Assembly (NCBI GenBank): GCA_021826065.1
Contig: JAKADY010000011.1
Location: forward strand, 7 to 64,006
Reading direction: 5' to 3'
DNA length: 64,000 nt
Origin: Pseudomonadota bacterium
GTDB taxonomy: Bacteria > Pseudomonadota > Gammaproteobacteria > Burkholderiales > Thiobacillaceae
Within the stretch, counting starts at the first letter, position 1, and every line of letters starts with the position of its first letter. The notes below the pieces were generated by a model that ran no database searches, was not told the origin of the DNA, and was given only the letters and a program-made list of their open reading frames with translations. Positions 227 through 28,790 of the stretch are shown here, in pieces. The position numbers and the translations under genes are program-made.

Positions 227-1372
227 ATGTTTTCCAACCGTGCCAGCATCCCCGCCGCACTGCAAAGCTTCAAGCTGGAAGGGCGTATGCTCTGCTACAA
301 CAGCTTCGTGCCCAAGCTCTACAACTGGTGCCTGTCACTGGGCTTCACGCCGGGCAAGATCATGCCCTCCCGCGCCTTCTGTTCGGATGAGAGCCAGGGC
401 TTTCCCATCATCCTGCTAGCCAAGCACTTCGGCGCCTTTCCCTTCAACCACGGCCGCGTGGGCGGCATCGTCTCGGTGGAGCGGCACGCACCCCACGCCG
501 ACCACGGCAAGGACCTGGTCCTGCTCCAGGCCAGCCATGTCGGCTATGACCCCGATACCGGCGAGTTCGGGGTCTATCGCCGGCTGCACACCGAGCACGG
601 CGGCAACACCTGCGCCTGCGGCAAGATCGGCCGCATCGTCGAGCAATACGCCAAGGATTACACCTACGCCTGTGAGAGCGTGCGCCTGCTGCGCCACGAG
701 GGCCAGCCGGCGGTGCTCATCGACTATCTGCTGATCGCCCATCCGCAAAAGCAGGGGCTTTACCTCGTCGCGCAGAACCTGGTTCAGGATGCCGAGCGGG
801 GTCTGCCCCGCCCGCTCGCCACCCGCAGCACCGGCTATGTCTATCGCGCCGCCGATAGCCTGGTCGCCCGCCTGGGCGAGGCGACCTGGCCGGAGACGGG
901 CAGCATCGCCATCGGCCAACACCTCAGTGCGGAGGACTTCTACTTCCAGCGCGAGGGCAGCTGGCCCGACCCCTTCCAGGACCAGCTGGAGCAGAATCTG
1001 CTCGCCCCCATGCCCTGGATCCTGACCTCCAAACACCCGCTGCTCACCGCCGCCTGCGCCAACACCTTAGCCGAGTTCGAACGCACCTACCGCAGTTTGC
1101 TGCAGTCACCGGCCATGCGTGGCAAGAACCTGGTCTTCGTGGGCGGGCTCAACATCGACATCTCGCCGCACCTGGGCGACGACTTCCCGCTGACCAAGTT
1201 CGTGCCCTGGGCCGCCTTCGTGCAGTATGCCGATGGCCGTCAGGAGATCCTGGAGCAGGACGACTTGTACCAATGCCTGAGCGCCATGCCCCGGGACAAC
1301 CCGGCCCAGATCGATCTCGAGCGCTCCATCGCGGCCATGTCGGCAAAGGAAGAGGTGCAGGTGCGGATCTAA
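227..1372 (+). CDS. LCIB/LCIC-like beta-carbonic-anhydrase-fold protein (candidate)
   Basis: 381-aa ORF. Block AFCSDESQGFPIILLAKHFGAFPFNHG holds Cys52; His104 is in QASHVGYD; Cys129/131 are in TCACGK. In this Cys..His..Cys layout His and the second Cys are ~25 aa apart, as I recall for the LCIB family, not the canonical HxxC. No clear SD at the ATG; Met21 is an alternative start. Confidence 0.5.
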   Translation: MFSNRASIPAALQSFKLEGRMLCYNSFVPKLYNWCLSLGFTPGKIMPSRAFCSDESQGFPIILLAKHFGAFPFNHGRVGGIVSVERHAPHADHGKDLVLLQASHVGYDPDTGEFGVYRRLHTEHGGNTCACGKIGRIVEQYAKDYTYACESVRLLRHEGQPAVLIDYLLIAHPQKQGLYLVAQNLVQDAERGLPRPLATRSTGYVYRAADSLVARLGEATWPETGSIAIGQHLSAEDFYFQREGSWPDPFQDQLEQNLLAPMPWILTSKHPLLTAACANTLAEFERTYRSLLQSPAMRGKNLVFVGGLNIDISPHLGDDFPLTKFVPWAAFVQYADGRQEILEQDDLYQCLSAMPRDNPAQIDLERSIAAMSAKEEVQVRI

Positions 1373-1539
1373 GGCAGGCGCGTTCGGCCCGGGGTCGATG
1401 CATCACACCCGTGCCGTGCCAAGTCTGGCGGCGATGCCGCCGCACCCTCACAGCGCCCTGAATCGCCCTCTCCCGCCGCGGCAACGGGTCATTCGCCGTC
1501 CGCAGCGGAGCCATTGCGCCGACCGACGCCGGCCGTGAC

Positions 1540-1761
1540 CTAGCCCCGTTCCCGCCCCGCCGCGACGTCGGCCCCGTCCTCGCCCGCCGGCGCGGTCTTC
1601 CCGCTGGGTTGCCATTCCACCCCATGCCGCTTCAGGTATTCGCGGATGAGCTGACGCACCACCTGCGAGGGCGTCATGTCCTGTTGTGCGCAAAGCTGTT
1701 CGAAGGCCTTCTTCTTGGCGGGGTCCAGCAGCACGGTTAAGCGGGCCGTCTTGCGTTCCAT
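1540..1761 (-). CDS. ribbon-helix-helix (CopG/Arc-type) DNA-binding protein
   Basis: 73-aa ORF. KTARLTVLLDPAKKKAFEQLCAQQDMTPSQVVRQLIREYL fits a beta-strand plus two-helix RHH layout, followed by a Gly/acidic tail. ATG at 1761, directly beside a palindrome cluster. Confidence 0.65.
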   Translation of the reverse strand: MERKTARLTVLLDPAKKKAFEQLCAQQDMTPSQVVRQLIREYLKRHGVEWQPSGKTAPAGEDGADVAAGRERG

Positions 1762-1772
1762 GGTCGTCTGAT

Positions 1773-1815
1773 ATTATCATGCCATGATAATGCTATGCTC
1801 ATAGCATATGCATAT
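1773..1815. promoter_or_regulatory. three abutting perfect palindromes (candidate RHH operator) in a divergent promoter region
   Basis: ATTATCATG-C-CATGATAAT (1773-1791), TGCTATG-CT-CATAGCA (1791-1806), ATATGCATAT (1806-1815). AT-rich island 12 bp from the RHH start codon and ~115 bp upstream of the hyfB-like start. Confidence 0.5.
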
Positions 1816-1929
1816 CCTGTCAATATCCCCTTGGTATCCGCCGGCCGGCGCGCCCCATGTCCAGAATCCCCATCACCCGTCGCAGGCACTCGCAGGTGCG
1901 CCGGGTAGCGCACGTCCCGTCTGCAGGCC

Positions 1930-3942
1930 ATGCCTGAGACCACGCTCCTGGACTGGGCCTGGGCCGTCGTCTTGTATTGGCTCGGGCTGGCCGCTGCAAG
2001 CCTGGCGCTGCAGACGCAGGCCGGCCTCACGCGCTGGGTCGTTTTTCCGCTCGGCATCCTTGGGGCTGCTGCCATGGCGGTCCTGGGGGCGCTGGCCCTG
2101 GCTTCGCCGCCGACCCAGTTCATCCTGCCGATCGGCCTGCCAGAGCTGCCCTTCCACCTGCGCCTGGATGCCCTGTCCGGATTCTTCCTGATCCTGCTGG
2201 GGGTGGCCTCGTCCGGGGTGGGGATCTACGCCATCGGTTATTTCCGGCACATGGCCGCCGGCCCGCTCGCCGTTTTGAGCCTTTGGTACCACCTGTTCCT
2301 CGCCGGCATGGCCCTGGTGCTGCTGGCAGACGACGCCTACGCCTTCATGGTGGCCTGGGAGCTGATGGCGCTGGCGTCCTATTTCCTGGTGACCACAGAC
2401 CACAAGATCCCCGACATCCGCCGCGCCGGTTTCCTCTACCTGCTCATCGCCCATGTCGGGGCGGTCGCCCTGCTGCTCGCCTTCGGCGTGCTGCACGGCA
2501 GCGATCCGGCGCGCATGGCCGCCTACAGCTTCGACGCCATGCGGGAAAACACCCTGAACCCCGCCTGGGCCTCAGTCACCTTCCTGCTCGCCCTGTTCGG
2601 CTTCGGTGCCAAGGCGGGGCTGGTCCCCTTGCACGTCTGGCTGCCGGAGGCCCACCCAGCGGCCCCCTCCCCGGTTTCCGCCCTGATGAGCGGGGTCATG
2701 CTGAAGACCGCGATCTACGGGCTGCTGCGCGTCAGTCTGGACCTCATCGGCGCGCCGCCGGCCTGGTGGGGTACCGTGGCCCTCTCCCTGGGGCTCGTCA
2801 CCGCCCTCTATGGCGTGATCTTCGCCGCCGTGCAGTCGGACATGAAGCGGCTGCTGGCCTGGTCCTCCATCGAGAACATCGGCTTCATCATCGCCGCCTT
2901 CGGCCTCACCCTGATCTTTCACGCCGATGGCAAGGGGGCCCTGGCGGCACTGACCCTGACCGCCCTGCTCTATCACGCCCTCAACCACGCCCTGTTCAAG
3001 AGCCTGTTGTTCGTCGGCACCGGCTCGGTACTGCATGCCACCGGCGAGCGGCGCATGGGGCGCCTGGGGGGGCTGATCCGCTTCATGCCCTGGACGGCCT
3101 GGCTCATGCTGCTGGGGGCCCTGGCCATCGCCGGGTTACCACCACTCAACGGTTTCGTCTCCGAATGGCTGCTGCTGCAGGCCTTCCTGCTCACGCCCGG
3201 CCTCACCCAGCCCTATCTCAACATGGCCATCCCGGTGGCCGCCGCCGTGGTGGTGCTGGCCGCCGCCCTAGCCGCCTATGTCATGGTGAAGTTCTACGGC
3301 GTCATCTTCCTCGGCCAGCCGCGCGATCCTGAACTCAATGAGGCGCACGAGGCCGGCTGGCCGGAGCGGCTGAGTATGCTGGGGCTGGCGGCGGGCTGTG
3401 TGGTCCTGGGGCTCGTACCCTCGCAGATGATCGGCTGGCTCAACCCCGTGGTGGAGGCGCTGCTCCAGCAGACCCTGCCCAACGACGGCAACTGGCTCAT
3501 GGTCGCGCCGCTGTCCGCGCAGCGCGCGAGTTACGCCCCGCTCGTGTTCCTCGCCGTCGTCAGTGCCATCACCCTGCTGGTCTTCTTCGGCGTGAAATAC
3601 GTCTACCACGGCCGGGTGCGCCGCGCCGCCCCCTGGGACTGCGGCTACCCGGAGCTCGACGCGCGCATGCAGGACAGCGCCGAGGGTTTCGGCCAACCCA
3701 TACGTCTGATCTTCAGCGCCTTCATGCGGGTCGAGCGCATCACCCCCGACCCCTTCGATCGCCAACCCCAATACCGTGGCGACAGCCGCGACAAGGTCTG
3801 GCTGTGGCTCTACCAGCCCATCGCCGCCGCGGCGGCCTGGCTCTCGGCGCAGGCGAGCCGGCTGCAGCACGGTCGTATCCAGTGGTATCTGATCTACAGC
3901 TTCGCCACCCTGATCTTCCTGCTCGTCTTCGTCACCCGTTAG
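1930..3942 (+). CDS. HyfB/NuoL-like antiporter-type membrane subunit of a hydrogenase-4-like (Ehr-type) complex
   Basis: 670-aa polytopic ORF of HyfB-like size. Carries the Mrp/NuoL-family core (WELMALASYFLV, GFGAKAGLVPLHVWLPEAHPAAPSPVSALMSGVMLK) and a HyfB-type C-terminal extension. Confidence 0.85.
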   Translation: MPETTLLDWAWAVVLYWLGLAAASLALQTQAGLTRWVVFPLGILGAAAMAVLGALALASPPTQFILPIGLPELPFHLRLDALSGFFLILLGVASSGVGIYAIGYFRHMAAGPLAVLSLWYHLFLAGMALVLLADDAYAFMVAWELMALASYFLVTTDHKIPDIRRAGFLYLLIAHVGAVALLLAFGVLHGSDPARMAAYSFDAMRENTLNPAWASVTFLLALFGFGAKAGLVPLHVWLPEAHPAAPSPVSALMSGVMLKTAIYGLLRVSLDLIGAPPAWWGTVALSLGLVTALYGVIFAAVQSDMKRLLAWSSIENIGFIIAAFGLTLIFHADGKGALAALTLTALLYHALNHALFKSLLFVGTGSVLHATGERRMGRLGGLIRFMPWTAWLMLLGALAIAGLPPLNGFVSEWLLLQAFLLTPGLTQPYLNMAIPVAAAVVVLAAALAAYVMVKFYGVIFLGQPRDPELNEAHEAGWPERLSMLGLAAGCVVLGLVPSQMIGWLNPVVEALLQQTLPNDGNWLMVAPLSAQRASYAPLVFLAVVSAITLLVFFGVKYVYHGRVRRAAPWDCGYPELDARMQDSAEGFGQPIRLIFSAFMRVERITPDPFDRQPQYRGDSRDKVWLWLYQPIAAAAAWLSAQASRLQHGRIQWYLIYSFATLIFLLVFVTR

Positions 3943-3946
3943 CCCC

Positions 3947-4891
3947 ATGACCACCGGTATCGCGCTCCAGATCGGCCAGACCCTGCTGGCCCTCGTGCTC
4001 GCGCCCATGCTGATGGGCTGGGTCAACGTCTGCCGCGCCTGGCTGCAGGGCCGCGTCGCGCCGCCCCTGCTGCAGCCCTACTACAACCTGCGCAAGCTCT
4101 TCCACAAGGACGCCGTGCTGGCGCACGACGCCACCCGCCTGTTCCGCTTCGCCCCCTATATCATCTTCGCCTGCATGGTGCTGGCCGCCGGCATCGTCCC
4201 CACCCTGGCGAACGATCTGCCGTTCTCGCCGGCGGCGGACGTGATCGCCCTGGTCGGCCTGTTCGCCCTGGCCCGGGTCTTCCAGGCCCTGGCGGCGCTG
4301 GACATCGGCACCGCCTTCGGGAGCCTGGGGGCGCGACGCGAGATGCTGATCGCCTTCCTGGCCGAGCCGGCGCTGCTGATGGTCTTCTTCACCGCCAGCC
4401 TCATCTCCCAGTCCACCGAACTGCCCCACATCGTGGACCGCCTGGCCCACCAGGAATTCGCGCTCTATCCCAGCCTCGCCTTCGCGGCGGTGGCCTTTTG
4501 GATGGTCTCCACCGCCGAGAACGCCCGCATCCCGGTGGACAACCCCACCACCCATCTGGAGCTGACCATGATCCACGAGGCGATGGTGCTGGAATACTCC
4601 GCCCGGCACCTGGCCATGATCGAGTGGGCGGTGGCCTTGAAGCTCTTCACCTACTCCACCCTGGGTATCGCGCTCTTCCTGCCATGGGGCATCGCACCGG
4701 CGGGGGACCTCAACGCCCTGCCGCTCGCCCTGCTGGCGCTTGCCCTCAAGCTGGCGATAGGAGGGGCGGCGCTCGCCCTGCTGGAGACGGTCAACGCCAA
4801 GATGCGCCTGTTCCGCGCCCCCGAATTCCTTGGCACCGCCTTCCTGCTGGCGGTGCTTGGGATGCTCACGCACTTCCTGCTGGAGGTCTGA
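3947..4891 (+). CDS. HyfC/HycD/NuoH-like membrane subunit
   Basis: 314-aa polytopic ORF starting 4 nt after the preceding stop. N-terminus LAPMLMGWVNVCRAWLQGRVAPPLLQPYYNLRKLFHKD is typical of formate-hydrogenlyase subunit 4 / NuoH. Confidence 0.85.
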   Translation: MTTGIALQIGQTLLALVLAPMLMGWVNVCRAWLQGRVAPPLLQPYYNLRKLFHKDAVLAHDATRLFRFAPYIIFACMVLAAGIVPTLANDLPFSPAADVIALVGLFALARVFQALAALDIGTAFGSLGARREMLIAFLAEPALLMVFFTASLISQSTELPHIVDRLAHQEFALYPSLAFAAVAFWMVSTAENARIPVDNPTTHLELTMIHEAMVLEYSARHLAMIEWAVALKLFTYSTLGIALFLPWGIAPAGDLNALPLALLALALKLAIGGAALALLETVNAKMRLFRAPEFLGTAFLLAVLGMLTHFLLEV

Positions 4892-4892
4892 G

Positions 4893-5555
4893 GTGAGCCT
4901 GACCTACCACCTGCAAGTCGTCAACCTGCTGGCCGCGCTGCTGCTGCTGATCGCCTTCGCCATGCTGTCGCAGCGCCGCATCGTCGGGTTGATCACCCTG
5001 TTCGCCTGGCAGGGGGCAGCGCTGGCGACCTCGACCGCCATCGTCGCCTGGTCCACCGGTCAGCATCACCTCTACTACTCCGCCGCCCTGACCCTGGGCC
5101 TCAAGGTGGTCCTCGTGCCCTGGTACTTCTTCCGGTTGATCCGCCAGCTCGACGTGGACCGGGAGGTGGAGCCGATGATCAACATCCCCACCACCATGCT
5201 GATCGGCATCATTCTGGTGATCTTCGCCTTCAACCTGGCCCTGCCCATCTCGCAGATGGCCGGCACGGTGACGCGCTCCACCCTGGGGATTGCGCTGGCC
5301 AGCGTGCTGCTCGCCTTCCTCATGATGATCACGCGCAGCAAGGCCATCCCCCAGGTGATCGGCTTCCTGGCCATGGAAAACGGCCTGTTCTTCGCCGCCA
5401 CCAGCGCCACCTACGGCATGCCCCTGGTGGTGGAGCTCGGCGTGGCCCTGGACGTGCTGGTGGCCGTGTTCGTGCTGGGTATCTTCTTCTTCCACATCCG
5501 CGAGACCTTCGACTCGATGGATCTCAAGCACATGGAGCGACTGCGGGAGAAATGA
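4893..5555 (+). CDS. HyfE-like small membrane subunit
   Basis: In-frame GTG at 4893, 1 nt after the hyfC-like stop (the track ORF start at 4830 overlaps the upstream gene). ~220 aa, hydrophobic, ending MENGLFFAA...LDVLVAVFVLGIF as in hydrogenase-4 component E. Confidence 0.8.
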   Translation: MSLTYHLQVVNLLAALLLLIAFAMLSQRRIVGLITLFAWQGAALATSTAIVAWSTGQHHLYYSAALTLGLKVVLVPWYFFRLIRQLDVDREVEPMINIPTTMLIGIILVIFAFNLALPISQMAGTVTRSTLGIALASVLLAFLMMITRSKAIPQVIGFLAMENGLFFAATSATYGMPLVVELGVALDVLVAVFVLGIFFFHIRETFDSMDLKHMERLREK

Positions 5556-5623
5556 GCCCGGTCGGCATCTCCTCTTTGCCGCGCAACGCGCTTGCCAGCG
5601 CCGCACTCGGGAGGACGGCGTAG

Positions 5624-7081
5624 ATGGAAATGTATTGGTTGCTGGGCTTGCCGCTCGCCGGCGGTATCACCCTGGCCTTCTGGGGCCATCGCGCGCATGC
5701 CCCGGAGATCAACGCCGCCTTCAGCCTGGCCACCCTCATCGCCGCCGGGTGGCTGACCGCCCACATCGTGGCGGAAGGCCCGGTGCTGATCGGCGGCGAT
5801 GGCTGGTTCTACATCGATGCCTTCAACGTCTTTCTGGTGGCGCTCACCGCCTTCGTCGCCTTCACCACGGCGCTCTTCTCGCGCCCCTACATGCGCATCG
5901 AACAGGCGCACGGCCGGGTGAACGCAGCACGGCTGCGCCTGTACCACGCCAGCTATCAACTGTTCATCGGCACCATGCTGCTGGCGCTGACCACCAACAA
6001 CATGGGCATCCTCTGGGTGGCCATGGAGGCGGCCACCCTCACCACCGTGCTGCTGGTATCGCTCTACCGCACACCGGCCGCCCTGGAGGCCGCATGGAAA
6101 TACTTCATCCTCTGCGGCGTTGGCATCGCGCTGGCCCTGTTCGGCACCATCCTGCTCTATTTCGCGGCGGAACAGGTGCTGGGCGCTGGCGGCGGGGCAC
6201 TGTCCTGGACGCACCTCAATGCGGTGAAGACCCGGCTGGAACCCGTCGTGCTGCAGCTGGCCTTCGTCTTCCTGCTGGTGGGCTACGGCACCAAGGTGGG
6301 CCTGGTGCCCTTGCACAGCTGGCTGCCCGACGCCCATGGCGAGGGGCCCACCCCCATCTCCGCCGTGCTCTCGGGTCTGTTGCTCAACGTGGCCCTCTAT
6401 GCGGTGATGCGTTCCAAGGTCCTGGTGGACGGGGCGCTGGGCGGCGCCAGCCTGGCCGGTGCCCTGATGATGGGGTTCGGGCTGCTGTCGGTGCTCGTCG
6501 CCGCCCTGCTCATCCGGCGACAGACCGACGTCAAGCGGATGTTCGCCTATTCCTCCATCGAGCACATGGGGTTGATCACCTTTGCCTTCGGCATGGGTGG
6601 GATGGTGGCCTCCTTTGCGGCGCTGTTGCACATGACCGTGCACTCGCTGACCAAGTCGGCCATCTTCTACGCCGTGGGTCATGCCACGCAAAAGGCTGGC
6701 ACGCAGGTGATGGAGGACATCCGTGGCCTGATCAAGACCAATCCCACCATCGGTTGGGGCCTGATCCTCGGCACCATCGCCATCCTGGGCGTGCCACCAT
6801 TCGGCGTGTTCGCCAGCGAGTTCCTCATCATCACCACCACCATGCACCAGCACCCCTGGGCCACCCCGGTGCTGCTCACGGCACTGGGCGTGGCCTTCGC
6901 TGCCATGTTCGGGCGCGTGCAGCCCATGGTCTTCGGCGAGACCACCCTGCCGCGGCTGCCGCATCAGCCGGCCCTGCTGCCGGTGTTCGTCCACCTGGCG
7001 CTGGTGCTGATGTTGGGCCTGTTCATTCCGGGCTATCTCGCCCACTGGTATCGTCAGGCGGCGTGCCTGCTCGGCGGCTGA
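5624..7081 (+). CDS. HyfF/NuoM/N-like antiporter-type membrane subunit
   Basis: 485-aa polytopic ORF with GGGAGGA SD 8 nt upstream. Motifs GILWVAMEAATLTTVLLV and GYGTKVGLVPLHSWLPDAHGEGPTPISAVLSG match the complex-I antiporter-like family. Confidence 0.85.
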   Translation: MEMYWLLGLPLAGGITLAFWGHRAHAPEINAAFSLATLIAAGWLTAHIVAEGPVLIGGDGWFYIDAFNVFLVALTAFVAFTTALFSRPYMRIEQAHGRVNAARLRLYHASYQLFIGTMLLALTTNNMGILWVAMEAATLTTVLLVSLYRTPAALEAAWKYFILCGVGIALALFGTILLYFAAEQVLGAGGGALSWTHLNAVKTRLEPVVLQLAFVFLLVGYGTKVGLVPLHSWLPDAHGEGPTPISAVLSGLLLNVALYAVMRSKVLVDGALGGASLAGALMMGFGLLSVLVAALLIRRQTDVKRMFAYSSIEHMGLITFAFGMGGMVASFAALLHMTVHSLTKSAIFYAVGHATQKAGTQVMEDIRGLIKTNPTIGWGLILGTIAILGVPPFGVFASEFLIITTTMHQHPWATPVLLTALGVAFAAMFGRVQPMVFGETTLPRLPHQPALLPVFVHLALVLMLGLFIPGYLAHWYRQAACLLGG

Positions 7082-7093
7082 GGGTCAGGCGAC

Positions 7094-8644
7094 ATGGACA
7101 CGCACATCGGCGACATCGAACTCACCCTCACCCCGCAGGGCGGCAGCGCCGTCTGGCGCTTCGGCCTCGCACCTGAGCGGCTGCCGGCCTTCGCCCGCGC
7201 CATCCAAGAGGAAGGCGGGCAGTTGTTGGCCCTGTGGGGTAGCGACGACCGCCATCTCGGGCGCGGCTTCGGCCTGCATATGGTATTCCTATCGAGCCAA
7301 GGGCTCGTCTGGACCCAGGCCGATCTGCCCGCCGCAGCCCCGGAGTATCCCGACCTCGCCGCCATCTTCCCCCAGGCCGAGCGCATGCAACGCGCCGCCT
7401 ATGACCTGCTGGGGCTGCGCGCCAGCGGCGCGGTGGATGGCCGCAAATGGCTGCGCCACACCGCCTGGGGGGAAGACGAATACCCCCTGCGCAAGGACGC
7501 CCCGAGTCAGCCCCCTCCCGCCTCACCTACCCAGGCGGACGCCTACCCATTCATCCGCGTGGCCGGCGATGGCGTACACGAGATCCCGGTCGGTCCCATC
7601 CATGCCGGCGTGATCGAACCAGGGCACTTCCGCTTCTCTGTCGTCGGCGACAAGGTGCTTCGGCTGGAGGAACGGCTGGGCTACACCCACAAGGGCATCG
7701 AGAAGCGCTTCGAGGGGATGGATTTGTCGCTGGGCGCGCGGCTGGCCGGGCGCGTGTCCGGTGACAGCCACTCAGCCTACACCTGGGCCTACTGCATGGC
7801 CGTGGAGGCGGCGCTGGGGTTCACGGTGCCCGAGCGGGCGCTGTGGCTGCGGGCCCTGCTCCTGGAGATGGAGCGCGTGGCCAACCACCTGGGCGACCTG
7901 GGCTATCTCGGCAACGACGTGGCCTTAAGCTTCGGTTTCGCCCAGTTCTGGCGGCTCAAGGAGGATTGGCTGCGCCTGGCACAGCGACTGTTCGGCCACC
8001 GCTATGCCTTCGACTGCATCGTCCCCGGCGGCGTAACGACCGACCTCGGCGAGGCGGACGCCCTACTGGACCTGGTGCGGCGGCTGAGGACCGAGGTCGC
8101 GGAGCTCAAGGCGGTCTACGACGAGCATGCCGGTGTGCAGGACCGTTTCGCCCACACCGGCCGGGTCGACCCGGCCATGGCCGCGCGTTTGGGGGTCATC
8201 GGCCTGGCGGGCCGGGCGAGCGCCCAGGCCTGGGACCTGCGCGTGCAATTCCCCCACCCGCCCTACGACCGGCTGGAGGTCAACATGGCCACCGACCGAC
8301 GCGGTGACGTGCTGGCCCGGGTCGAGGTGCGCTTTGCCGAGGTGTTCGAGTCGCTGCGCCTGATCGAGGCCATCGTGCAGCGGCTGCCCGCCGACCCCCT
8401 GCAGGCGGAGGTGCCGCACGCGGACGGCGTGCGCGAGGGCTTGGGCTATGTGGAGGGCTGGCGCGGCCCCGTCCTGGTGGCGGTGCGCATCGGCATGGAT
8501 GGCCGGCTCGACCGCGTACACCCGCATGACCCGTCATGGCAGAACTGGCCGGCGCTGGAGGTCGGTATCCTGGGCAACATCGTCCCGGATTTCCCGCTCA
8601 TCAACAAGTCCTTCAATCTGTCTTACAGCGGTCACGACCTCTAG
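7094..8644 (+). CDS. NuoC-NuoD/HycE-like large subunit lacking all [NiFe] cysteine ligands
   Basis: 516 aa with a NuoC-like N-terminus fused to a HycE/NuoD-like body (PVGPIHAGVIEPGHFRF, LGYTHKGIEKRFE). The expected RxCGxCxxxH site reads GRVSGDSHSAY. The expected C-terminal DPCxxC site reads NLSYSGHDL-stop. The protein has only 2 Cys, neither in a CxxC. Confidence 0.85.
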   Translation: MDTHIGDIELTLTPQGGSAVWRFGLAPERLPAFARAIQEEGGQLLALWGSDDRHLGRGFGLHMVFLSSQGLVWTQADLPAAAPEYPDLAAIFPQAERMQRAAYDLLGLRASGAVDGRKWLRHTAWGEDEYPLRKDAPSQPPPASPTQADAYPFIRVAGDGVHEIPVGPIHAGVIEPGHFRFSVVGDKVLRLEERLGYTHKGIEKRFEGMDLSLGARLAGRVSGDSHSAYTWAYCMAVEAALGFTVPERALWLRALLLEMERVANHLGDLGYLGNDVALSFGFAQFWRLKEDWLRLAQRLFGHRYAFDCIVPGGVTTDLGEADALLDLVRRLRTEVAELKAVYDEHAGVQDRFAHTGRVDPAMAARLGVIGLAGRASAQAWDLRVQFPHPPYDRLEVNMATDRRGDVLARVEVRFAEVFESLRLIEAIVQRLPADPLQAEVPHADGVREGLGYVEGWRGPVLVAVRIGMDGRLDRVHPHDPSWQNWPALEVGILGNIVPDFPLINKSFNLSYSGHDL

Positions 8645-8646
8645 CC

Positions 8647-9180
8647 ATGGCCACGCACCTCATCCTGCGAAAGATCCTCAAGACCGGCCGGGTGACCGAA
8701 CCGGCGCCGCCGGCCAATGCGGCCTACCGCGTGCGCCTGCAGGCGCTGCAGGCAGAGCTGTACGAGGTCTTCGGCCGGGCGCTGACCATCCGCCACGTCG
8801 ATGCCGGCTCATGCAACGGCTGCGAGCTGGAGATCCACGCCCTCAACGGCCCGCACTACAACCTCGAGGGTTTGGGCATCAAGTTCGCCGCCAGCCCGCG
8901 CCACGCCGACGTGCTGCTGGTCACCGGGCCGGTGTCGCGCCACCTGGAGACGGCCCTCAAGCGGACCTACGAGGCCACACCGGAACCGAAATGGGTGGTG
9001 GCGATGGGCGACTGCGCCTGCACGGGTGGCATCTTCGGCGAGAGCTACGCGAGCCGCGGGCGGGTGGCGAATGTCATCCCGGTCGACGTGGAGATCCCGG
9101 GCTGCCCGCCCGACCCGGTGCGCCTGCTCGAAGGCATCCTGGCCGCGGTCAAGATCGACCGCAGCCATGGCGCGTCCTAG
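8647..9180 (+). CDS. NuoB/HycG-like small subunit (single [4Fe-4S] site retained)
   Basis: ATG at 8647, 2 nt after the large-subunit stop (the track ORF start at 8536 overlaps upstream). Cys pattern GSCNGCE ... GDCACTGG ... GCPPDP matches the N2/proximal-cluster ligands. Confidence 0.85.
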   Translation: MATHLILRKILKTGRVTEPAPPANAAYRVRLQALQAELYEVFGRALTIRHVDAGSCNGCELEIHALNGPHYNLEGLGIKFAASPRHADVLLVTGPVSRHLETALKRTYEATPEPKWVVAMGDCACTGGIFGESYASRGRVANVIPVDVEIPGCPPDPVRLLEGILAAVKIDRSHGAS

Positions 9181-14283: not shown

Positions 14284-14406
14284 GAAAATCGGCATAGCCG
14301 ATCACATCGCCCCCTTCCCCCGCAAGCGGGGGAGGGGGTGGGGGAGAGGGAACCGTTCATGGACGGGGCGAGCGTTTTTTCATGGGCAAGAGCGGCCATG
14401 AACGGT
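14284..14406. repeat. BoxC-like GGGTGAGGG intergenic repeat, copy 1 (subtype with ACCGTTCATG...CATGAACGGT ends)
   Basis: GAAAATCGGCATAGCCGATCAC - CCCCTTCCCCCGCAAGCGGGGGAGGGGGTGGGGGAGAGGGAACCGTTCATG ... CCATGAACGGTCA. Near-identical architecture to 50935-51063. Lies between the queA start and the LysR stop. Confidence 0.8.
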
Positions 14407-15350
14407 CAGCTTGGCTTGTCCGGTCGGGCGGCCGAGCGGCGGTAGGGCGCCAGCAGTTCGTCCGTGAACTGGTGGATGAAGCGGCGGAACTGCCCCACCA
14501 CCGGCATGTCGCCCTTGACGCTCAGGTAGACCAGATACCAGTGGCCGAGGATGGGCAGTGTCTCGACGTCGAGGACGCGGATCTCCTCGCCGAAGTGGAG
14601 GCCCGCCAGCATGGTCCGCGAGACGATGGACACGCCCACGCCGGTGGCGACCGCCTGCTCGATGGCGAAGTTGCTGCCGAGCTCCATGCGCGGGCGGATC
14701 TTGATGCCGTGTTGCGCCAGATGGCGCTCGATGGTGATGCGCGTGCCCGAGCCCGGCTCGCGCATCAGGAAGGGCTGGGCGCAGAACTCGGCCAGGGGGA
14801 TGCGGCGCCGGCGCCGCGCGAGGGGATGCTGACGGGCGGCGATGGCCACCAGCTCGTTGGGCATGAAGGGCTCCACCGTCAGGTCCGGCCCCTCTGGCGG
14901 CACGCTGAAGATGTAGAGGTCGTCGAGGTTGTCGCGCATGCGCTTCAACAGCACGTCGCGCTGGGTCACGCTCAGGGTGGGCTCGATGGCCGGGTGCTGT
15001 TGCAGGAAGTGGCCGAGGATGCGCGGGGCGAAGAACTTGGCCGAGGTCGCCACCCCCAGCCGTAGCCTCCCCCCCTCCAGCCCCTTGAGCGCCTGTAGCC
15101 GCGCCTGCATCTGCTCCAGCCCGTCGAGCATGATGCGCGCGCCGGCCAGCACGATCTCGCCCGCCTCGGTCAGATGCAGCTTCTTGCGGTGGGTGTAGAA
15201 CAGCGGGCTGCCGACGATGTCCTGCAGCTGCGCCATCTGCATGGACACCGTGGGCTGGGTCAGGTGCAGTTCGCGCGCGACCTGGCTGAAGTTGCCGCAG
15301 CGGGCGAGGCGCTCGAAGACCTGCAGTTGGCGCAGTGTGGGGTAGGCCAT
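14406..15350 (-). CDS. LysR-family regulator, CbbR paralog
   Basis: ATG at 15350 (track ORF runs to 15482). 314 aa. Alignable along its length with the cbbR product at 40020 (HLTQPTVSMQM, GRLRLGV..SAKFFAPR, LMREPGSGTR, ELGSNFAIEQAV). Divergent from SulP gene 15473. Confidence 0.8.
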   Translation of the reverse strand: MAYPTLRQLQVFERLARCGNFSQVARELHLTQPTVSMQMAQLQDIVGSPLFYTHRKKLHLTEAGEIVLAGARIMLDGLEQMQARLQALKGLEGGRLRLGVATSAKFFAPRILGHFLQQHPAIEPTLSVTQRDVLLKRMRDNLDDLYIFSVPPEGPDLTVEPFMPNELVAIAARQHPLARRRRRIPLAEFCAQPFLMREPGSGTRITIERHLAQHGIKIRPRMELGSNFAIEQAVATGVGVSIVSRTMLAGLHFGEEIRVLDVETLPILGHWYLVYLSVKGDMPVVGQFRRFIHQFTDELLAPYRRSAARPDKPS

Positions 15351-15354
15351 TAGA

Positions 15355-15372
15355 TATAGGTTTATACCTATA
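15355..15372. promoter_or_regulatory. LysR-type palindromic box
   Basis: TATAGGT-TTAT-ACCTATA, perfect 7-bp arms, 5 bp from the LysR start codon and ~100 bp upstream of the SulP start. Same core pattern as ATAGAT-TTAC-ATCTAT at 39879-39894. Confidence 0.55.
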
Positions 15373-15472
15373 GTCGGTATCGTAACAATTGATTTCAGCT
15401 TATACAAGCCGCGCCCTAAGATGACCCCCATGGCGCGGCATCCGGTCACGCATCGAGAGAGAGGAGCTTTCC

Positions 15473-17554
15473 ATGAACCCAAGCCTGTCGAACTGGCTAC
15501 CGTTTTTACGCTGGTTCCCCATGACCCCCGCCACCCTGCGCGCCGACCTGGTCGCCGGCGTCACCGTGGCCCTGGTGCTGGTGCCGCAGAGCATGGCCTA
15601 TGCCCTGCTCGCCGGCCTGCCGGTGGTCTACGGCCTGTATGCCGCGCTGTTGCCGGTCATCGTCGGTGCGCTGTTCGGCAACTTCAACCTGCTGCATACC
15701 GGCCCGGTGGTGATGCTCTCGCTCATGTCGGCGGCAGCGGTCGCTCCCTTCGCCATCGCCGGCTCGGACGAGTTCATCGCCCTGTCCATCCTGCTCGCCC
15801 TCATGGTCGGCGTGCTGCGGCTGCTGATGGGCGTCTTCAAACTGGGCGGGATCGTCAACCTTGTGTCGCACCCGGTGCTCATCGGCTTCACCAACGCGGC
15901 AGCGCTCATCATCGGCCTGTCGCAACTGCGCTTCATCCTCAACATGCCCAACCCGGGCACCGGCAGTTTCGCCGGCGACGTCACCACCCTGCTCGCCCGT
16001 CTCGACCAGGCCTACTGGCCGGCCGTCGCCTTCGCCGCCGGTGCGGGCCTGATGATGTGGCTGCTCATGCGCTGGCTGCCCAAGCTGCCGGCGGTCCTGC
16101 TCGCGGTCGTGTTCGGCACCGCCCTGAGCGCCGCCATCGGCTATGAGCAGGTGGCCAATCCCGGTGTGGAGCGCATCGCCGACCCGGAGGTGCGCACCAT
16201 GCTCACCACCTTTGCCGAGACGAACCAGACGTTGAAACAGCTCGCAGCCGAGGCCACCCGCCAGCGTGCCGCCCTGCGCGAGGCCGAGGCCGCGGGGGCG
16301 TCGGCCACGACCCTGACGGCCCTGCAGGCGGAGATCGAGGTGCTGGAGGTGCGCATCGAAAACCTCAAGAAGGAAAACAACGCGCGCCGGCTGGACCTGC
16401 ACGCCCAACCCCTGGTCGCGGTCGATACGGCCGACGGGCTGACCTACTACCGCGCTGACCGCCTGCCTGCCGGGGCCACCCCGATTGACGGCACCTGGCG
16501 GTTCCAGGGACTGAAGGACGGCAAGGTCACGCTGGCCGCCGGCGGCGACGTGGTCGGCCAGATCCCGGCGGGGCTGCCCGAGTTCAAAGCGCCCACGCTC
16601 GATTGGAACATCATGCTGACGCTGCTGCCAGCGGCCTTCGTCATGGCCCTGATCGGCTTCATGGAGGCCACCTCGGTGTCCAAGGCCCTGGCCGCCAAGA
16701 CGCATGAGCGCCTCGACACCAACAAGGAGCTGATCGGTCAGGGCTTGGCCAACATCGTCGGTGCCTTCTTCCAGAGCTACACGGTGAGCGGCTCGTTCTC
16801 GCGCTCGGCTGTGGCCGCACGCGCGGGCGCGAAAACCGGTCTGTACGCGGTGGTGAGCGCACTGGTGGTGCTGGTCGTGCTGCTCTTCCTCACGTCCTAC
16901 CTCTACCACCTGCCGCAGGCGGTCCTGGCCACCATCGTCATGATGGCGGTATTCGGCCTGATCCGTGTGGCGCCGCTCAAGCAGGCCTGGCGGGTGCAGC
17001 GCAGCGACGCGGTGGCGGGCCTGATCACCTTCGTCGCCACCCTCGCCTTCGCCCCCGACATCGCCAACGGCATCCTGATCGGTATGGCGCTGACGGCCAC
17101 CTTGTTTCTTTTGCGCACCATGAAGCCGCGTGCGGCGGTGCTCGGGCGCAAGGCCGACGGCAGCCTGGGCGGCACCGACAGCGGGGCGCTTGAGCCGCTC
17201 GGCCAAAACTTCGTCGCCATGCGCTTCGACCGCTCGCTCAACTACCTCAATGTGGCGGCCTTCGAGGACAGCGTGCTGGAGGTGCTGGCGCGACAGCCCC
17301 AGGTGCGCGGCATCCTGGTCATCGGCTCCGGCATCAACGAGCTCGACGCCAGCGGTGCGGACAAGGTGCGCGAGCTGGCCGAGCGCCTGCAACAACAGGG
17401 CGTGGTCCTAATGTTCAGCAGTCTAAAGGCACCGGTGGCCGATGCCTTCGGCCGCGCCGGCCTGATCGAGCTGCTCGGTCCGGACAACGTCTTCCCGAGC
17501 AAGGCCCAGGCCGTGGATGCCGCCCGGCGGCGCTTCGATCTCGCCCCCGCCTGA
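15473..17554 (+). CDS. SulP-family anion transporter with C-terminal STAS domain (candidate DIC/bicarbonate transporter), carrying a ~130-aa insertion
   Basis: 693 aa; GAGGAG SD 8 nt upstream. SulP hallmarks: DLVAGVTVALVLVPQSMAYALLAGLP, GQIPAGLPEF, NKELIGQGLANIVGAFFQSYTVSGSFSRSAV. STAS-like C-terminus. Residues ~225-360 are extra relative to the usual SulP layout. Confidence 0.85.
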   Translation: MNPSLSNWLPFLRWFPMTPATLRADLVAGVTVALVLVPQSMAYALLAGLPVVYGLYAALLPVIVGALFGNFNLLHTGPVVMLSLMSAAAVAPFAIAGSDEFIALSILLALMVGVLRLLMGVFKLGGIVNLVSHPVLIGFTNAAALIIGLSQLRFILNMPNPGTGSFAGDVTTLLARLDQAYWPAVAFAAGAGLMMWLLMRWLPKLPAVLLAVVFGTALSAAIGYEQVANPGVERIADPEVRTMLTTFAETNQTLKQLAAEATRQRAALREAEAAGASATTLTALQAEIEVLEVRIENLKKENNARRLDLHAQPLVAVDTADGLTYYRADRLPAGATPIDGTWRFQGLKDGKVTLAAGGDVVGQIPAGLPEFKAPTLDWNIMLTLLPAAFVMALIGFMEATSVSKALAAKTHERLDTNKELIGQGLANIVGAFFQSYTVSGSFSRSAVAARAGAKTGLYAVVSALVVLVVLLFLTSYLYHLPQAVLATIVMMAVFGLIRVAPLKQAWRVQRSDAVAGLITFVATLAFAPDIANGILIGMALTATLFLLRTMKPRAAVLGRKADGSLGGTDSGALEPLGQNFVAMRFDRSLNYLNVAAFEDSVLEVLARQPQVRGILVIGSGINELDASGADKVRELAERLQQQGVVLMFSSLKAPVADAFGRAGLIELLGPDNVFPSKAQAVDAARRRFDLAPA

Positions 17555-21580: not shown

Positions 21581-22141
21581 ATGAAACTCACCCAAGACAT
21601 CAAGCGCATGCTCAACGCCCTGGCCTATGCCAACGCCGGCGACTACCTGACGCCCAGTCAGAAATCGCGTGCCCTCTCGGGCACCCGGCCGGCAAAACCC
21701 GCCCCGACCGTCCAAACCAACACCGGGGCGCGTCCCCAGGTCGGGCTCTACCTGGGCAGCGAGCTCACGGCCGAGGCCATGCAGTACGTCGTGCAGACCT
21801 GCGCCCGGCTGCGCTATGGGCTCACCGTCCTGACCTTCCTGAGCGAGACCGAGGCCCAGGCCCTGCTCATGCCGCTCAGGCCCCTGCTCGACGCCGCGGG
21901 GATCGAGCTGCGTCTGGCCGTGCTCTCGGGCGAGCCGCCCACCGCCCTGGCCAGCGCCCTGCGCCGCCGCCCGGAGGTGGCCTTCCTGGTCTGCAACGAG
22001 GCGGGCTATCTCGGGCACGGCCTGATCAGCGGCAATCAGCGGCAGGTGGGCCTGCCAGTGCCGGTGGTCCTCATCGCCGCCCAGGCGTCCGTCGCCGAGG
22101 CCACGCCGACACAACAGGCCGCCCAGGTCCGCGCTGCCTGA
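21581..22141 (+). CDS. hypothetical protein (possible USP-like alpha/beta C-terminal domain), first gene of the sigma-54-driven SulP operon
   Basis: 186-aa ORF with protein-like composition. Conserved-looking N-terminal peptide MLNALAYANAGDYLTPSQK, a Pro/Thr linker, then alternating beta/alpha pattern (VGLYLGSE...LTVLTFLSE...VAFLVCNEAG...PVPVVLI). Family not recognised. Confidence 0.5.
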   Translation: MKLTQDIKRMLNALAYANAGDYLTPSQKSRALSGTRPAKPAPTVQTNTGARPQVGLYLGSELTAEAMQYVVQTCARLRYGLTVLTFLSETEAQALLMPLRPLLDAAGIELRLAVLSGEPPTALASALRRRPEVAFLVCNEAGYLGHGLISGNQRQVGLPVPVVLIAAQASVAEATPTQQAAQVRAA

Positions 22142-22209
22142 GCAAAAGGCCGCGGACGCCCTGGAATAAGATCGTCTGGACAACGCCCCGTGTGCCCGGC
22201 ACGGGGTCC

Positions 22210-24300
22210 ATGCCCATGCTGACCCGCTTTTTTCCCTTCCTGCGTTGGTTTCCCCTGACCCCGGCCAACCTGCGCGGCGACCTGATCGCCGGCATCACCG
22301 TCGCCCTGATCCTGATCCCCCAGTCCATGGCCTACGCCACCCTGGCGGGTCTGCCCGTGGTCTATGGGCTCTATGCCGCATTTCTGCCCGTGATGGTGGC
22401 CTCGATGTGGGGCTCCTCGCGCTTCCTGCATACCGGCCCGGTCGCCCTGCTGTCGCTGATGTCCGCCGCCGCGATCGAACCGCTCGCGAGCCGCGGCAGC
22501 GAGGAATTCATCCAGTTCTCCATGACCCTGGCCCTGCTGGTCGGCATCATGCGGCTGGCCCTGGGGCTCTTTCGCATGGGGGTGCTGATCAACCTGGCCT
22601 CGCACCCGGTGATCAACGGTTTCACCAACGCCGCCGCCCTGATCATCGGCCTGTCGCTCCTCAACACCTTCGTCAACGTGCCCATGCCGCGTTCGGACAT
22701 GTTCCTGCGCGACCTCTGGCACGTCATCGTGCAGCTGCCGCTCGCGCACTGGCCCACGCTCGCCTTCGGCATCGGCACCCTGCTCGTGTTGTGGCTGCTC
22801 AAAAAGCTCTCGCCCAAGCTGCCGGGCGTGCTGATCGTCGTCATCCTCGGCACTGTGGTGAGCGCCGCCATCGGCTTCGAGCGCACCGACCTCGTGCCTC
22901 TGGAACGCATCACCGATGTCCAGGCCCGCGCCGACTATGAGACCTATGCCCGGCTGGACGCCGCCCTGGCGGCGAACAAGAAGGCCCAGGGCGAGGTGCG
23001 CCACCGCATCGCCACCCTGGCCAAGAGTGCGGTGCACGACTACAGCCTCGAGGCCGAGCTGCTGCGTCTGAGCGGCGAGGAGGAGAGCCTCAAGAAACAG
23101 CTCTACGGCCAGCGGGTGGCCGTGCACCGGCATGCCCTGGTGCCCGTCACCGCAGCAGATGGGCAGCCGGTCTACCAGGCCGCCACAGAGGCCGGATTCT
23201 TCGATCCGGTGTGGCGCTTCGCCGGGGTCAAGGACGGCCAGATCCGGCTCTCGGGCGGCGGCCAGGTGGTCGGCCACATCCCGGCCGGCCTGCCCGGCTT
23301 CGCCATCCCCCCGCTCGACCTCGGCCTTATCAGCGGTCTGCTCGGCACCGCCTTCATCATGGCGCTGATCGGCTTCATGGAGGCCACCTCGATCTCGCGG
23401 GCGCTCGCCGCCCAGAGTCGCGAAAAGCTCGACCCCAACCAGGAGCTGATCGGCCAGGGCCTGGCCAACATCGTCGGCGCCTTCTTCCAGTCCTACACCG
23501 TGTCGGGCTCCTTCTCCCGTTCGGCCGTGGCGGCCAAGGCGGGCGCCCGCACCGGCTTCTACGCCATCGTCAGCGCCCTGGGGGTGGTCGCGGTCATGCT
23601 GTTCATGACCGAGTACTTCTACCACCTGCCGCAGCCAGTGCTGGCCGCCATCGTCATGAGCGCGGTGTTCGGCCTGATCGACTTCCGCACCCTGCGCCAC
23701 GCCTGGAATGTGCGCCGGGGCGACGGTGTGGTGGGTCTCATCACCTTCCTCGCCACCCTGTACATGGCGCCCCAGCTCGCCAATGGGGTCCTCGTCGGGG
23801 TGGTGCTCACCATCCTGCTCTTCCTGCATGGGGTGATGCAACCGCGCAGCGAGGTGCTCGGCCGCACCCGCGACGGCACCCTGGCCGGGGCGGCCAGCCA
23901 CGACCTGCCGCCCATCAGCGACAACTACGTGGTCCTGCGCTTCGACGCCTCGCTGGTGTTCATCAACGCCGCCTTCTTCGAGCAGGCGGTGATGCGCGCG
24001 CTCGCCCAATTCCCCAGGGCGCGCGCGGTGCTGGTGATCGGCAACGGCATCAACCAGATCGACGCCTCGGGCGAGGAGAAGCTGCGCACCCTGGTGGCCG
24101 ACCTCAAGGCCGCCGGCGTCACCCTGATGTTCTCGGGCCTCAAGAAGCAGGTGCGCGAGGCCCTGGCGCGGGCCGCCCTGGACGAGGTCATCGGTCGCGA
24201 AAACCTCTTCCCCAACAAGGACCTGGCGCTCAAGACCCTGGCCGAGCGTTACGACCAGGCCGCACCCCCCGCGGCACCGCCGGGCTTGGCGCCGGCATGA
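22210..24300 (+). CDS. SulP-family anion transporter with STAS domain (second paralog, candidate DIC transporter), with ~130-aa insertion
   Basis: Track ORF starts at GTG 22192. ATG 22210 (MPMLTRFFPFLRWFP) aligns with the paralog N-terminus. Same SulP hallmarks (DLIAGITVALILIPQSMAYATLAGLP, GHIPAGLPGF, NQELIGQGLANIVGAFFQSYTVSGSFSRSAV) and the same inserted segment position. Confidence 0.85.
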   Translation: MPMLTRFFPFLRWFPLTPANLRGDLIAGITVALILIPQSMAYATLAGLPVVYGLYAAFLPVMVASMWGSSRFLHTGPVALLSLMSAAAIEPLASRGSEEFIQFSMTLALLVGIMRLALGLFRMGVLINLASHPVINGFTNAAALIIGLSLLNTFVNVPMPRSDMFLRDLWHVIVQLPLAHWPTLAFGIGTLLVLWLLKKLSPKLPGVLIVVILGTVVSAAIGFERTDLVPLERITDVQARADYETYARLDAALAANKKAQGEVRHRIATLAKSAVHDYSLEAELLRLSGEEESLKKQLYGQRVAVHRHALVPVTAADGQPVYQAATEAGFFDPVWRFAGVKDGQIRLSGGGQVVGHIPAGLPGFAIPPLDLGLISGLLGTAFIMALIGFMEATSISRALAAQSREKLDPNQELIGQGLANIVGAFFQSYTVSGSFSRSAVAAKAGARTGFYAIVSALGVVAVMLFMTEYFYHLPQPVLAAIVMSAVFGLIDFRTLRHAWNVRRGDGVVGLITFLATLYMAPQLANGVLVGVVLTILLFLHGVMQPRSEVLGRTRDGTLAGAASHDLPPISDNYVVLRFDASLVFINAAFFEQAVMRALAQFPRARAVLVIGNGINQIDASGEEKLRTLVADLKAAGVTLMFSGLKKQVREALARAALDEVIGRENLFPNKDLALKTLAERYDQAAPPAAPPGLAPA

Positions 24301-26205: not shown

Positions 26206-26243
26206 GGTTGTTGCATCACCGCGCGGGGGCGGACGTCGGACCG

Positions 26244-26313: not shown

Positions 26314-26337
26314 AGGACCGGCTGCGCATCGTGACCC

Positions 26338-28723: not shown

Positions 28724-28790
28724 TCAATCCTCGCTGCGGTGCAGCGCGGCAAAACGACTGCATCCTGTAACCCGCAGCCCGTATCCTGAA

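Follow-up and report, generated by a model that had tools for sequence, protein, structure and literature searches.

A long-form LCIB-like putative zinc carbonic anhydrase in an inorganic-carbon gene island of a Thiobacillaceae bacterium

LCIB is a central yet poorly understood component of the algal CO2-concentrating mechanism, in which it acts around the pyrenoid. LCIB/LCIC and PtLCIB3/4 (Pfam PF18599; structures 5b5y, 5k5w, 5b5x and 6kfs) have a domain of ~230–260 amino acids (aa). Here we describe a gene for a bacterial relative of these proteins, located at positions 227..1372 of a 64,000-nucleotide stretch of a Thiobacillaceae genome (assembly GCA_021826065.1, contig JAKADY010000011.1, positions 7 to 64,006 of the forward strand; this whole stretch is referred to as the window), where it stands near a six-gene hydrogenase-like cluster of the Ehr type (energy-converting/Ech hydrogenase-related), two transporter genes and a carboxysome locus. 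The LCIB-like protein has the same fold as LCIB/LCIC and PtLCIB3/4, which are its sole significant structural matches, shares their Cys-His-Cys motif, the Asp after the first Cys, the His-rich loop and the Arg loop, and is likewise tied to CO2-concentrating systems. It differs in its length of ~380 aa, in an identity of 12–16% to these proteins in structural alignments, and in being bacterial and encoded in a transporter/carboxysome island.

The locus also invites comparison with complexes in which CO2 hydration is joined to a membrane machine. In DabA/DabB (DAB), a gene for a carbonic anhydrase (CA)-like zinc protein likewise lies near a PF00361 antiporter-like gene in carboxysome-linked loci, and DabBA fills the same slot, after the LCIB-like gene and a ribbon-helix-helix (RHH) regulator gene, in seven sister loci of the window. 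However, the LCIB-like protein has no homology to DabA (PF10070) and is not encoded in an operon with membrane subunits, and DabB is a single antiporter subunit, whereas Ehr has six subunits, an Fe-S subunit among them, in a complex-I-like arrangement. With CupA/CupB on the cyanobacterial NDH-1MS/MS' complexes the shared concept is that of a complex-I-type membrane arm and a zinc CO2-hydrating protein, the Ehr counterparts being NuoH-, NuoL/M/N-, NuoB- and NuoCD-like subunits, but CupA has no sequence or fold relation to the LCIB-like protein. The gamma-CA subunits of plant and algal mitochondrial complex I and the Cam/CcmM gamma-CAs are in turn echoed by a gamma-CA gene upstream of some Ehr clusters of the same clade, in loci outside this window. 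The window cluster has the same hyfB, C, E, F, G and I-like gene set as Escherichia coli Hyf (hydrogenase 4) and the Ehr complexes, and like the latter it is without all four Ni-Fe cysteines while retaining the Fe-S cysteines of the small subunit; unlike most Ehr clusters outside it, those of this clade are placed in an inorganic-carbon island beside CA-like or SulP genes. According to a comparative study from 2025, the function of Ehr remains unknown (PMC12342949).

Fold and predicted zinc site of the LCIB-like protein

Translation of the open-reading frame (ORF) gives a product of 381 aa and 42.5 kDa, carrying the motifs that a preliminary description of the window had read from it: AFCSDESQGFPIILLAKHFGAFPFNHG (Cys52, Asp54), QASHVGYD (His104) and TCACGK (Cys129, Cys131). 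Three lines of evidence establish the ORF as a genuine gene: its codon statistics (GC content of 0.88 at third codon positions, GC3, against 0.43 at second positions, GC2, in a surrounding sequence of 68% GC), the range of its homologues, which span 99% to ~26% identity, and an N-terminus that these homologues share, which also shows the start codon to be correct. The family is sizeable, with ~2,500 proteins at E ≤ 1e-3 in a search of a 5.8-billion-protein set (350 cluster representatives at 50% identity), and its members are annotated as "hypothetical" only. No transmembrane segment or signal peptide was found in the protein, whose maximum 19-residue Kyte-Doolittle value of 0.84 rules out a transmembrane segment, so that it is taken to be soluble.

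A search of the protein against NCBIfam matched nothing, and a single-sequence search against the PDB gave marginal LCIB matches on a par with unrelated lactonases, hence profile and fold searches were required for its assignment. The Pfam LCIB_C_CA model (PF18599) matched at 27.9 bits against a gathering cut-off of 25 (E 1.8e-6), and precomputed PF18599 hits are present on many of the homologues. An AlphaFold2 model was built on a 58-sequence alignment (predicted local distance difference test, pLDDT, 85; predicted template modelling score, pTM, 0.86), and in a Foldseek search of the PDB its matches at E ≤ 1e-3 were to LCIB-family structures only, seven chains in all (5b5y, 6kfs, 5b5z, 5k5w, 5b60 and 5b5x), with E 5e-8 to 6e-5, probability 1.00 and a TM-score on target length of 0.68–0.78. 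A second CrLCIB chain followed at E 1.4e-3, and the best unrelated match had an E of 0.04. Because the Foldseek alignments cover ~340 query columns against targets of ~230 residues, the LCIB fold is spread across the whole protein with ~140 residues of insertions; these additional residues lie in the C-terminal half and take the protein well beyond the canonical LCIB domain size of ~220–260 aa. The LCIB-like putative beta-CA of the preliminary description was therefore upheld in both of the comparisons proposed for it, with the Pfam model and with the LCIB/PtLCIB structures. It is well supported, by sequence and by model, that the protein belongs to the LCIB (theta-CA, beta-CA fold) superfamily as a long-form member with the known active-site positions all kept, and the LCIB-like proteins of ~380 aa can be recognised as a distinct long subfamily, which occurs in some algae as well as in several bacterial phyla.

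The residues of the putative active site are strongly conserved. Cys52, His104 and Cys131 are invariant both in 26 sequences spanning 26–81% identity and in 58 closer ones, whereas Cys129, which had also been named, is not conserved among homologues and is a local feature. Asp54, Glu55 and Gln57 are nearly invariant in the 26 sequences, and in the 58 closer ones Ser53, His87, His93 and Arg118/119 are also invariant, His90 nearly so. In a profile alignment the motifs C-S-D-E, S-H-V-G and C-G-K fall on LC(S/R)DE, sHVG/PHIA and CCGS/CACGA of LCIB, which places the zinc triad in register with the conserved Cys, His and Cys motifs that are the presumed zinc ligands of LCIB; in the same alignment the His-rich loop matches His88 of PtLCIB4, and Arg118/119 the LCIB Arg loop. 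The first-Cys motif is CSDE, like that of PtLCIB4, and CrLCIB and LCIC have CRDE. The absence of an Arg at Cys+6 (Gly58) was considered as a failed catalytic dyad, an idea which we dropped given the alignment of the conserved Arg118/119 loop. The auxiliary His and Arg of CrLCIB have been described as important (PMC5876011). We predict that zinc would be bound by Cys52, His104 and Cys131, with further contributions to a CO2-hydration site from Asp54, the His87/90/93 loop and Arg118/119.

Neighbours of the LCIB-like gene in related genomes

To compare gene neighbourhoods, 80 genomic loci encoding LCIB-like relatives were used: the window's proteins were mapped onto the loci, the neighbours were clustered and representatives were annotated. 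A set of 39 betaproteobacterial loci at ≥62% identity, window included (Thiobacillus, Hydrogenophilales and relatives), is referred to as the beta-clade. In these Thiobacillus-like sulfur oxidisers the LCIB-like gene is a constant member of an island next to the alpha-carboxysome operon. The highly conserved gene order runs from SbtA(-P-II) through a 100-aa gene, a Trypsin_2-like gene and often a 706-aa SulP on the opposite strand to the LCIB-like gene, then to the RHH gene on the opposite strand and a variable cassette, with CsoS1D-like, CbbO and CbbQ genes and a carboxysome further downstream in many loci. The cassette after the RHH gene is a 571-aa SulP in ~15 loci, DabB-DabA (PF00361 + PF10070) in seven (L003, L004, L005, L011, L020, L023 and L063), and Ehr in five, namely the window, L001 and L085, together with L025 and L024 in which DNA is inserted. 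Nine other loci with downstream sequence have no RHH cassette, and CbbO, a LysR-SulP pair or other genes are found instead; one contig (L035) was too short for its cassette to be classified. The LysR-SulP pair of the window is the immediate downstream neighbour of the LCIB-like gene in L024, L030 and L031. A comparison of L027 (8160–11667) with the window (227–11512) is particularly direct: both have the same backbone of SbtA, the 100-aa gene, and the Trypsin_2-like, LCIB-like, BioD-like, DUF6671 and LysR genes, and in L027 the RHH-Ehr block is absent, so the ~7.8-kb RHH-Ehr cassette is a presence/absence unit.

The conserved order of the island and its swappable uptake cassettes across the 39 loci bear out the earlier view that this locus is concerned with inorganic carbon. 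A carbon-concentrating context of the LCIB-like gene is well supported, and from its neighbourhoods the gene can be placed securely in the inorganic-carbon acquisition system of these autotrophs, where it does not depend on Ehr.

The RHH gene (65–91% identity) directly follows the LCIB-like gene at ~27 loci, whichever cassette comes next. In the window it is transcribed towards the LCIB-like gene and away from the Ehr cluster, and is indeed the small gene that had been described as separating the two; an overlapping ORF on the minus strand (1448..1780) was rejected as this gene, as it is in the wrong frame and its product is Arg/Gly-rich. Between the RHH and Ehr genes, AT-rich palindromes, which include a perfect 9-1-9 inverted repeat (ATTATCATG/CATGATAAT) in an otherwise GC-rich region, are a candidate operator. 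On the other side of the LCIB-like gene, the 274-aa Trypsin_2-like gene and the 100-aa gene, which belongs to no family, form a pair that occurs between transporter and LCIB-like genes in nearly all beta-clade loci (L013:6597–7758, with equivalents in ~25 loci) and that in the window's genome lies just upstream of position 1.

In other lineages, DabA adjoins the LCIB-like gene in two Nitrospirae (L042 and L044), in Desulfofustis (L065) and in a gammaproteobacterium (L077), and elsewhere SulP, NhaD or LysR/FBA/CbbO/CbbQ adjoin it. The NhaD-type Na+/H+ antiporter gene is directly upstream of the LCIB-like gene in two Nitrospirae (L042:8347–9897; L039:1112–2539), the former of which also has a SulP gene upstream and DabA and Mrp-like genes downstream. 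Homologues with N-terminal extensions and 37–45% identity are found in photosynthetic eukaryotes: Paulinella micropora, the dinoflagellates Polarella glacialis and Togula jolla, and the cryptophyte Hemiselmis tepida (algal proteins include P0128, P0137, P0139 and P0142). This algal occurrence of the long subfamily suggests gene transfer between bacteria and algae; a paper on CO2 delivery in Paulinella does not mention LCIB.

The Ehr cluster and its link to inorganic carbon

The hyfBCEFGI-like cluster spans 1930..9180 (Table 1). In its large subunit, RVSGDSHS and a C-terminal SYSGHDL (Ser/Ser, Ser/Gly) replace the four Ni-Fe cysteines, and the four ligand positions are occupied by S/A, S/T/A, S and G in 91 of 91 homologues, while the small subunit keeps four Cys (CNGC...GDCAC...GCPP). 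On this combination the cluster is assigned as an Ehr-type complex, and what had been described as a hydrogenase-like cluster without Ni-Fe ligands proves to be so in the window and in the homologues alike. A close relative of the large subunit is encoded by the cultured Parasulfuritortus cantonensis. The HyfE-like gene probably starts near 4893 given homologue lengths of 220–222 aa, and the start of the small-subunit gene is placed by homologue lengths of 170–179 aa.

In a reverse test with the Ehr large subunit as the query, 17 clade loci (≥66% identity) extended far enough upstream to be judged. Each of them carries a carbon-related gene, CA-like or SulP, no more than ~7 kb ahead of Ehr, and within 3 kb except in L024 (6.8 kb) and L086 (~4.5 kb). 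This gene is the LCIB-like one in the window, L001, L085, L025 and L024; a 186-aa gamma-CA in L087, L088 and L102, and at ~4.5 kb in L086; a 706-aa-type SulP, often on the same strand, in L089 (82-bp gap), L090, L094, L099, L106, L107 and L131; and another SulP, on the opposite strand, in L098. The gamma-CA gene lies directly upstream of Ehr with no LCIB-like neighbour (L087:4202–4762; L088:3956–4516; L102:1829–2386), and its product retains all three His ligands and has the CcmM gamma-CA domain (129 bits) and Cam-type carbonic anhydrase (122 bits) as best family matches. A further CA-like gene, encoding a stand-alone protein of 350 aa, occurs just downstream of Ehr in L089 (14716–15780) and L094 (12328–13371); these proteins match the CsoSCA_cat catalytic domain only, at ~29 bits against a cut-off of 21.5. 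In L094 this gene is situated between Ehr and cbbL, which follows ~4 kb further with CbbO- and CbbQ-sized ORFs between, and it may be the last gene of a cbbLS-cbbQ-cbbO operon in which CbbO and CbbQ are recognised by ORF size only.

Proximity of the two systems recurs in two other phyla. The Nitrospirales locus L047 has the order Ehr, two small genes, long LCIB-like gene, short canonical LCIB and SulP, the LCIB-like gene being ~1.5 kb downstream of Ehr on the same strand; in the deltaproteobacterial locus L049 the LCIB-like gene is followed by a CBS-domain gene, a 473-aa hexapeptide-repeat gene and a convergent Ehr at a distance of ~2 kb. The tandem of long LCIB-like protein and short LCIB in L047 (6712–8685; the short protein has 239 aa, a PF18599 score of 108 bits and the motif C-R-E-E) resembles the algal LCIB/LCIC pair. 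Ehr clusters at 55–62% identity are neighboured by DnaE, MetG, acylphosphatase, DsrE-like and UbiA/UbiD genes and by no carbon-related ones, hence the link between Ehr and carbon is clade-specific so far. As several of the Ehr arrangements share flanking synteny, the independent events number perhaps six to eight, not seventeen. Because Ehr fills the slot of DabBA or SulP, and because three unrelated CA-like folds are encoded beside it, a role in inorganic-carbon uptake is a reasonable hypothesis for Ehr, and its broader association with carbon genes may be regarded as a new lead, the substrate of the SulP transporters being putative. In the literature, covered mainly through open-access papers and preprints so that an earlier description is possible, we found no paper that connects Ehr with carbonic anhydrases or with carbon uptake, nor any that describes LCIB relatives from the loci of chemolithoautotrophs.

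Elsewhere in the window, the two SulP transporters and the carboxysome of the preliminary description are present by Pfam assignment (Table 1), the carboxysome locus being complete with cbbL, cbbS, csoS2, csoSCA, shell genes, a ParA-like gene, cbbQ, cbbO and a CsoS1D-like gene. In many Thiobacillus loci an orthologue of the second SulP (75–82% identity) precedes the LCIB-like gene by ~3.4 kb. An identification of the SulP transporters as BicA was rejected, as their NCBIfam scores are all far below cut-off, and sulfate export is a possible alternative. After Ehr, on the opposite strand, positions 9177–12140 encode a BioD-like ATPase, a 268-aa protein (with homology to L085), a DUF6671 protein and a VTT-domain protein, a block which is syntenic in L085, L001 and L027. 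A 186-aa ORF at 21581..22141 has no Pfam or NCBIfam match, and several relatives have it conserved immediately ahead of the SulP2-type transporter; it was considered as a gamma-CA like the Ehr-linked one of the same length and rejected, having no similarity to it.

Table 1 Features of the window with their positions, strand and the evidence for each.
Feature	Position	Strand	Basis
Long-form LCIB-like (theta/beta-fold) putative zinc carbonic anhydrase gene	227..1372	+	Translation, PF18599, AlphaFold/Foldseek
Cys52-Ser53-Asp54 codons (Cys52, predicted first zinc ligand; Asp54, predicted catalytic Asp)	380..388	+	Conservation, profile alignment
His104 codon, second predicted zinc ligand, motif SHVG	536..538	+	Invariant, profile alignment
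Cys131 codon, third predicted zinc ligand, motif CGK	617..619	+	Invariant, profile alignment
RHH regulator gene, 73 aa	1540..1761	-	Homologues carry PF19839 RHH_9
AT-rich palindromes, RHH-Ehr intergenic region, candidate operator	1770..1827		Inverted repeats
Ehr membrane subunit, HyfB/NuoL-like antiporter-type, 670 aa	1930..3942	+	PF00361; NCBIfam hydrogenase 4 subunit B, 875 bits
Ehr membrane subunit, HyfC/NuoH-like, 314 aa	3947..4891	+	PF00146
Ehr membrane subunit, HyfE-like	4830..5555 (as listed)	+	NCBIfam hydrogenase 4 membrane subunit, below cut-off
Ehr membrane subunit, HyfF/NuoM/N-like antiporter-type, 485 aa	5624..7081	+	PF00361
Ehr large subunit, NuoC-NuoD fusion, 516 aa, without Ni-Fe ligands	7094..8644	+	PF00329, PF00346
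Ehr small subunit, NuoB-like, ~177 aa, four Cys for [4Fe-4S]	8647..9180	+	PF01058
LysR regulator gene	14406..15482	-	Pfam
SulP/STAS transporter gene, divergent from LysR	15473..17554	+	Pfam
Second SulP/STAS transporter gene	22192..24300	+	Pfam
Alpha-carboxysome/RuBisCO locus	25576..39673	-	Pfam

Possible roles of the LCIB-like protein

The reading that we favour, with moderate confidence, is that the LCIB-like protein acts in the cytoplasm as a zinc CO2 hydratase, that its gene lies with those of membrane uptake modules and is probably regulated together with them, and that Ehr is in this genome an RHH-controlled ion-translocating module. The protein would hydrate CO2 diffusing into the cell or leaking from carboxysomes, and this hydration would trap the CO2 as bicarbonate for the carboxysome, as has been proposed for algal LCIB, whilst the membrane cassette, be it SulP, DabBA or Ehr, would supply ion translocation or proton removal and so keep the bicarbonate pool high. 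Ehr would then be the candidate ion-coupled uptake module of this genome.

A number of points weigh against a soluble CO2 hydratase of this kind. The PF18599 match is limited to residues 25–145, in the N-terminal half of the protein, on profile positions 5–126 of 223, and the matches of the family profile to CrLCIB, PtLCIB4, CrLCIC and 6kfs are weak by sequence (E 0.003–0.05). Chlamydomonas LCIB/LCIC show no CA activity in vitro despite having the same site (reviewed in PMC5876011). Many gammaproteobacterial and verrucomicrobial copies of the gene stand alone in unrelated contexts: gammaproteobacterial LCIB-like genes at 46–50% identity have variable, unrelated neighbours, and most of the distant members of the family have no membrane partner nearby. 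The family is also found in probable heterotrophs (Verrucomicrobiae DG1235, Puniceicoccaceae), which together with the unrelated contexts implies that a carbon-concentrating role is not universal. Finally, a freely reversible cytoplasmic CA should dissipate the bicarbonate pool built by SbtA, SulP or DAB; the LCIB-like enzyme must therefore be regulated, coupled or expressed at other times, and a simple soluble-trap model leaves its coexistence with bicarbonate pumps unexplained.

It is this last point which keeps a coupled model alive, in which the LCIB-like protein docks on the antiporter-like (HyfB/HyfF-like) subunits of Ehr and forms a vectorial, ion- or redox-driven CO2 hydratase comparable to CupA/NDH-1MS and DabA/DabB. 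This is the model of the preliminary description, which had put LCIB-Ehr forward as a candidate energy-coupled pair. The energy-coupled logic retains some force, as a CA-like or SulP gene is near Ehr in all 17 clade loci, as Ehr and the LCIB-like gene adjoin one another in five of these and are independently close, within ~2 kb, in L047 and L049, and gamma-CA and CsoSCA-like genes lie near Ehr in other loci; an uncoupled cytoplasmic CA would be harmful beside bicarbonate pumps, which favours coupling, and by conservation and alignment the LCIB-like protein has the intact metal site expected of the CA-like subunit of a vectorial CO2 hydratase. The idea of a dedicated pair fared less well. Vectorial CO2 hydratases would be expected in one operon with a single membrane partner, but here the two do not share an operon, an RHH gene on the opposite strand separates them, and the gaps to the partner amount to 0.5–6.8 kb. 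Co-occurrence among the 39 beta-clade loci is inconsistent: Ehr follows the LCIB-like and RHH genes in five loci, fewer than SulP (~15) or DabBA (seven), the latter of which brings a CA subunit of its own; nine loci lack an RHH cassette, and L027 retains the LCIB-like gene without RHH-Ehr. Nor does the protein itself point to Ehr, since it shares 77–79% identity with DAB- and SulP-linked homologues against 69–70% with those of the Ehr-linked loci L024 and L025, which rules out a partner-specific clade; and most Ehr clusters outside the clade have housekeeping neighbours. On the distribution of its genes the proposed LCIB-Ehr pairing is a minority arrangement, and we judge docking on Ehr unlikely: a stable complex of the two could form, yet separate action under common regulation is the likelier arrangement.

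That the LCIB-like protein is instead non-catalytic, acting as a CO2/bicarbonate sensor or as a structural factor of the CO2-concentrating mechanism as has been argued for Chlamydomonas LCIB/LCIC, seems to us improbable. Such a role could draw on the in vitro inactivity of the Chlamydomonas proteins despite their zinc site, on the ~27 loci in which a small RHH regulator gene is paired with the LCIB-like gene, on the L047 tandem with its likeness to LCIB/LCIC, and on the additional ~140 residues, which could serve a non-catalytic function; however, zinc ligands that are invariant over wide divergence, together with conserved Asp54, Gln57, His loop and Arg118/119, fit a working site, and the first Cys is followed by Ser, a feature shared with PtLCIB4, which is reportedly catalytically active, and not by the Arg of CrLCIB/LCIC. 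Least likely, and in our opinion very improbable, is a hydrolase with the beta-CA fold whose substrate is a different small linear molecule, for instance carbonyl sulfide (COS) or CS2, beta-CA-fold hydrolases of these two being present in sulfur oxidisers (Thiobacillus thioparus COSase), or a housekeeping CA incidentally beside Ehr, for although the family extends to non-autotrophs and unrelated contexts, the genes that recur beside it, across at least four phyla, are those of carbon uptake and the Calvin cycle and not those for sulfur compounds, and its algal homologues occur in phototrophs.

If the favoured reading of a CO2 hydratase beside exchangeable uptake modules is extended, a more speculative proposal emerges, to which we give only tentative credence: the Cys-less Ehr of betaproteobacterial sulfur oxidisers, and perhaps also of some Nitrospirales and Desulfobacterota, would be a third class of membrane-energised carbon uptake machine, after NDH-1MS/CupA and DAB. 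It would work with interchangeable CA modules of unrelated folds (long LCIB-like, Cam/CcmM-type gamma-CA and CsoSCA-like) under a dedicated RHH repressor, and the LCIB-like protein of the window would be its CO2-hydrating partner.

What is new here is a long bacterial subfamily of LCIB and the possibility of a new kind of carbon pump in Ehr. Ehr complexes are widespread and occur in about half of Nitrospirales genomes, and the replacement of other cassettes in their slot, along with the flanking CA-like genes, gives them a specific hypothesis, that of ion-coupled inorganic-carbon uptake; if confirmed, this would provide a new module for engineering carbon-concentrating mechanisms. A bacterial sister family of LCIB, encoded in carboxysome and transporter loci, offers a tractable system for establishing what LCIB-type proteins do, and a route to how a cytoplasmic CA can coexist with bicarbonate accumulation.

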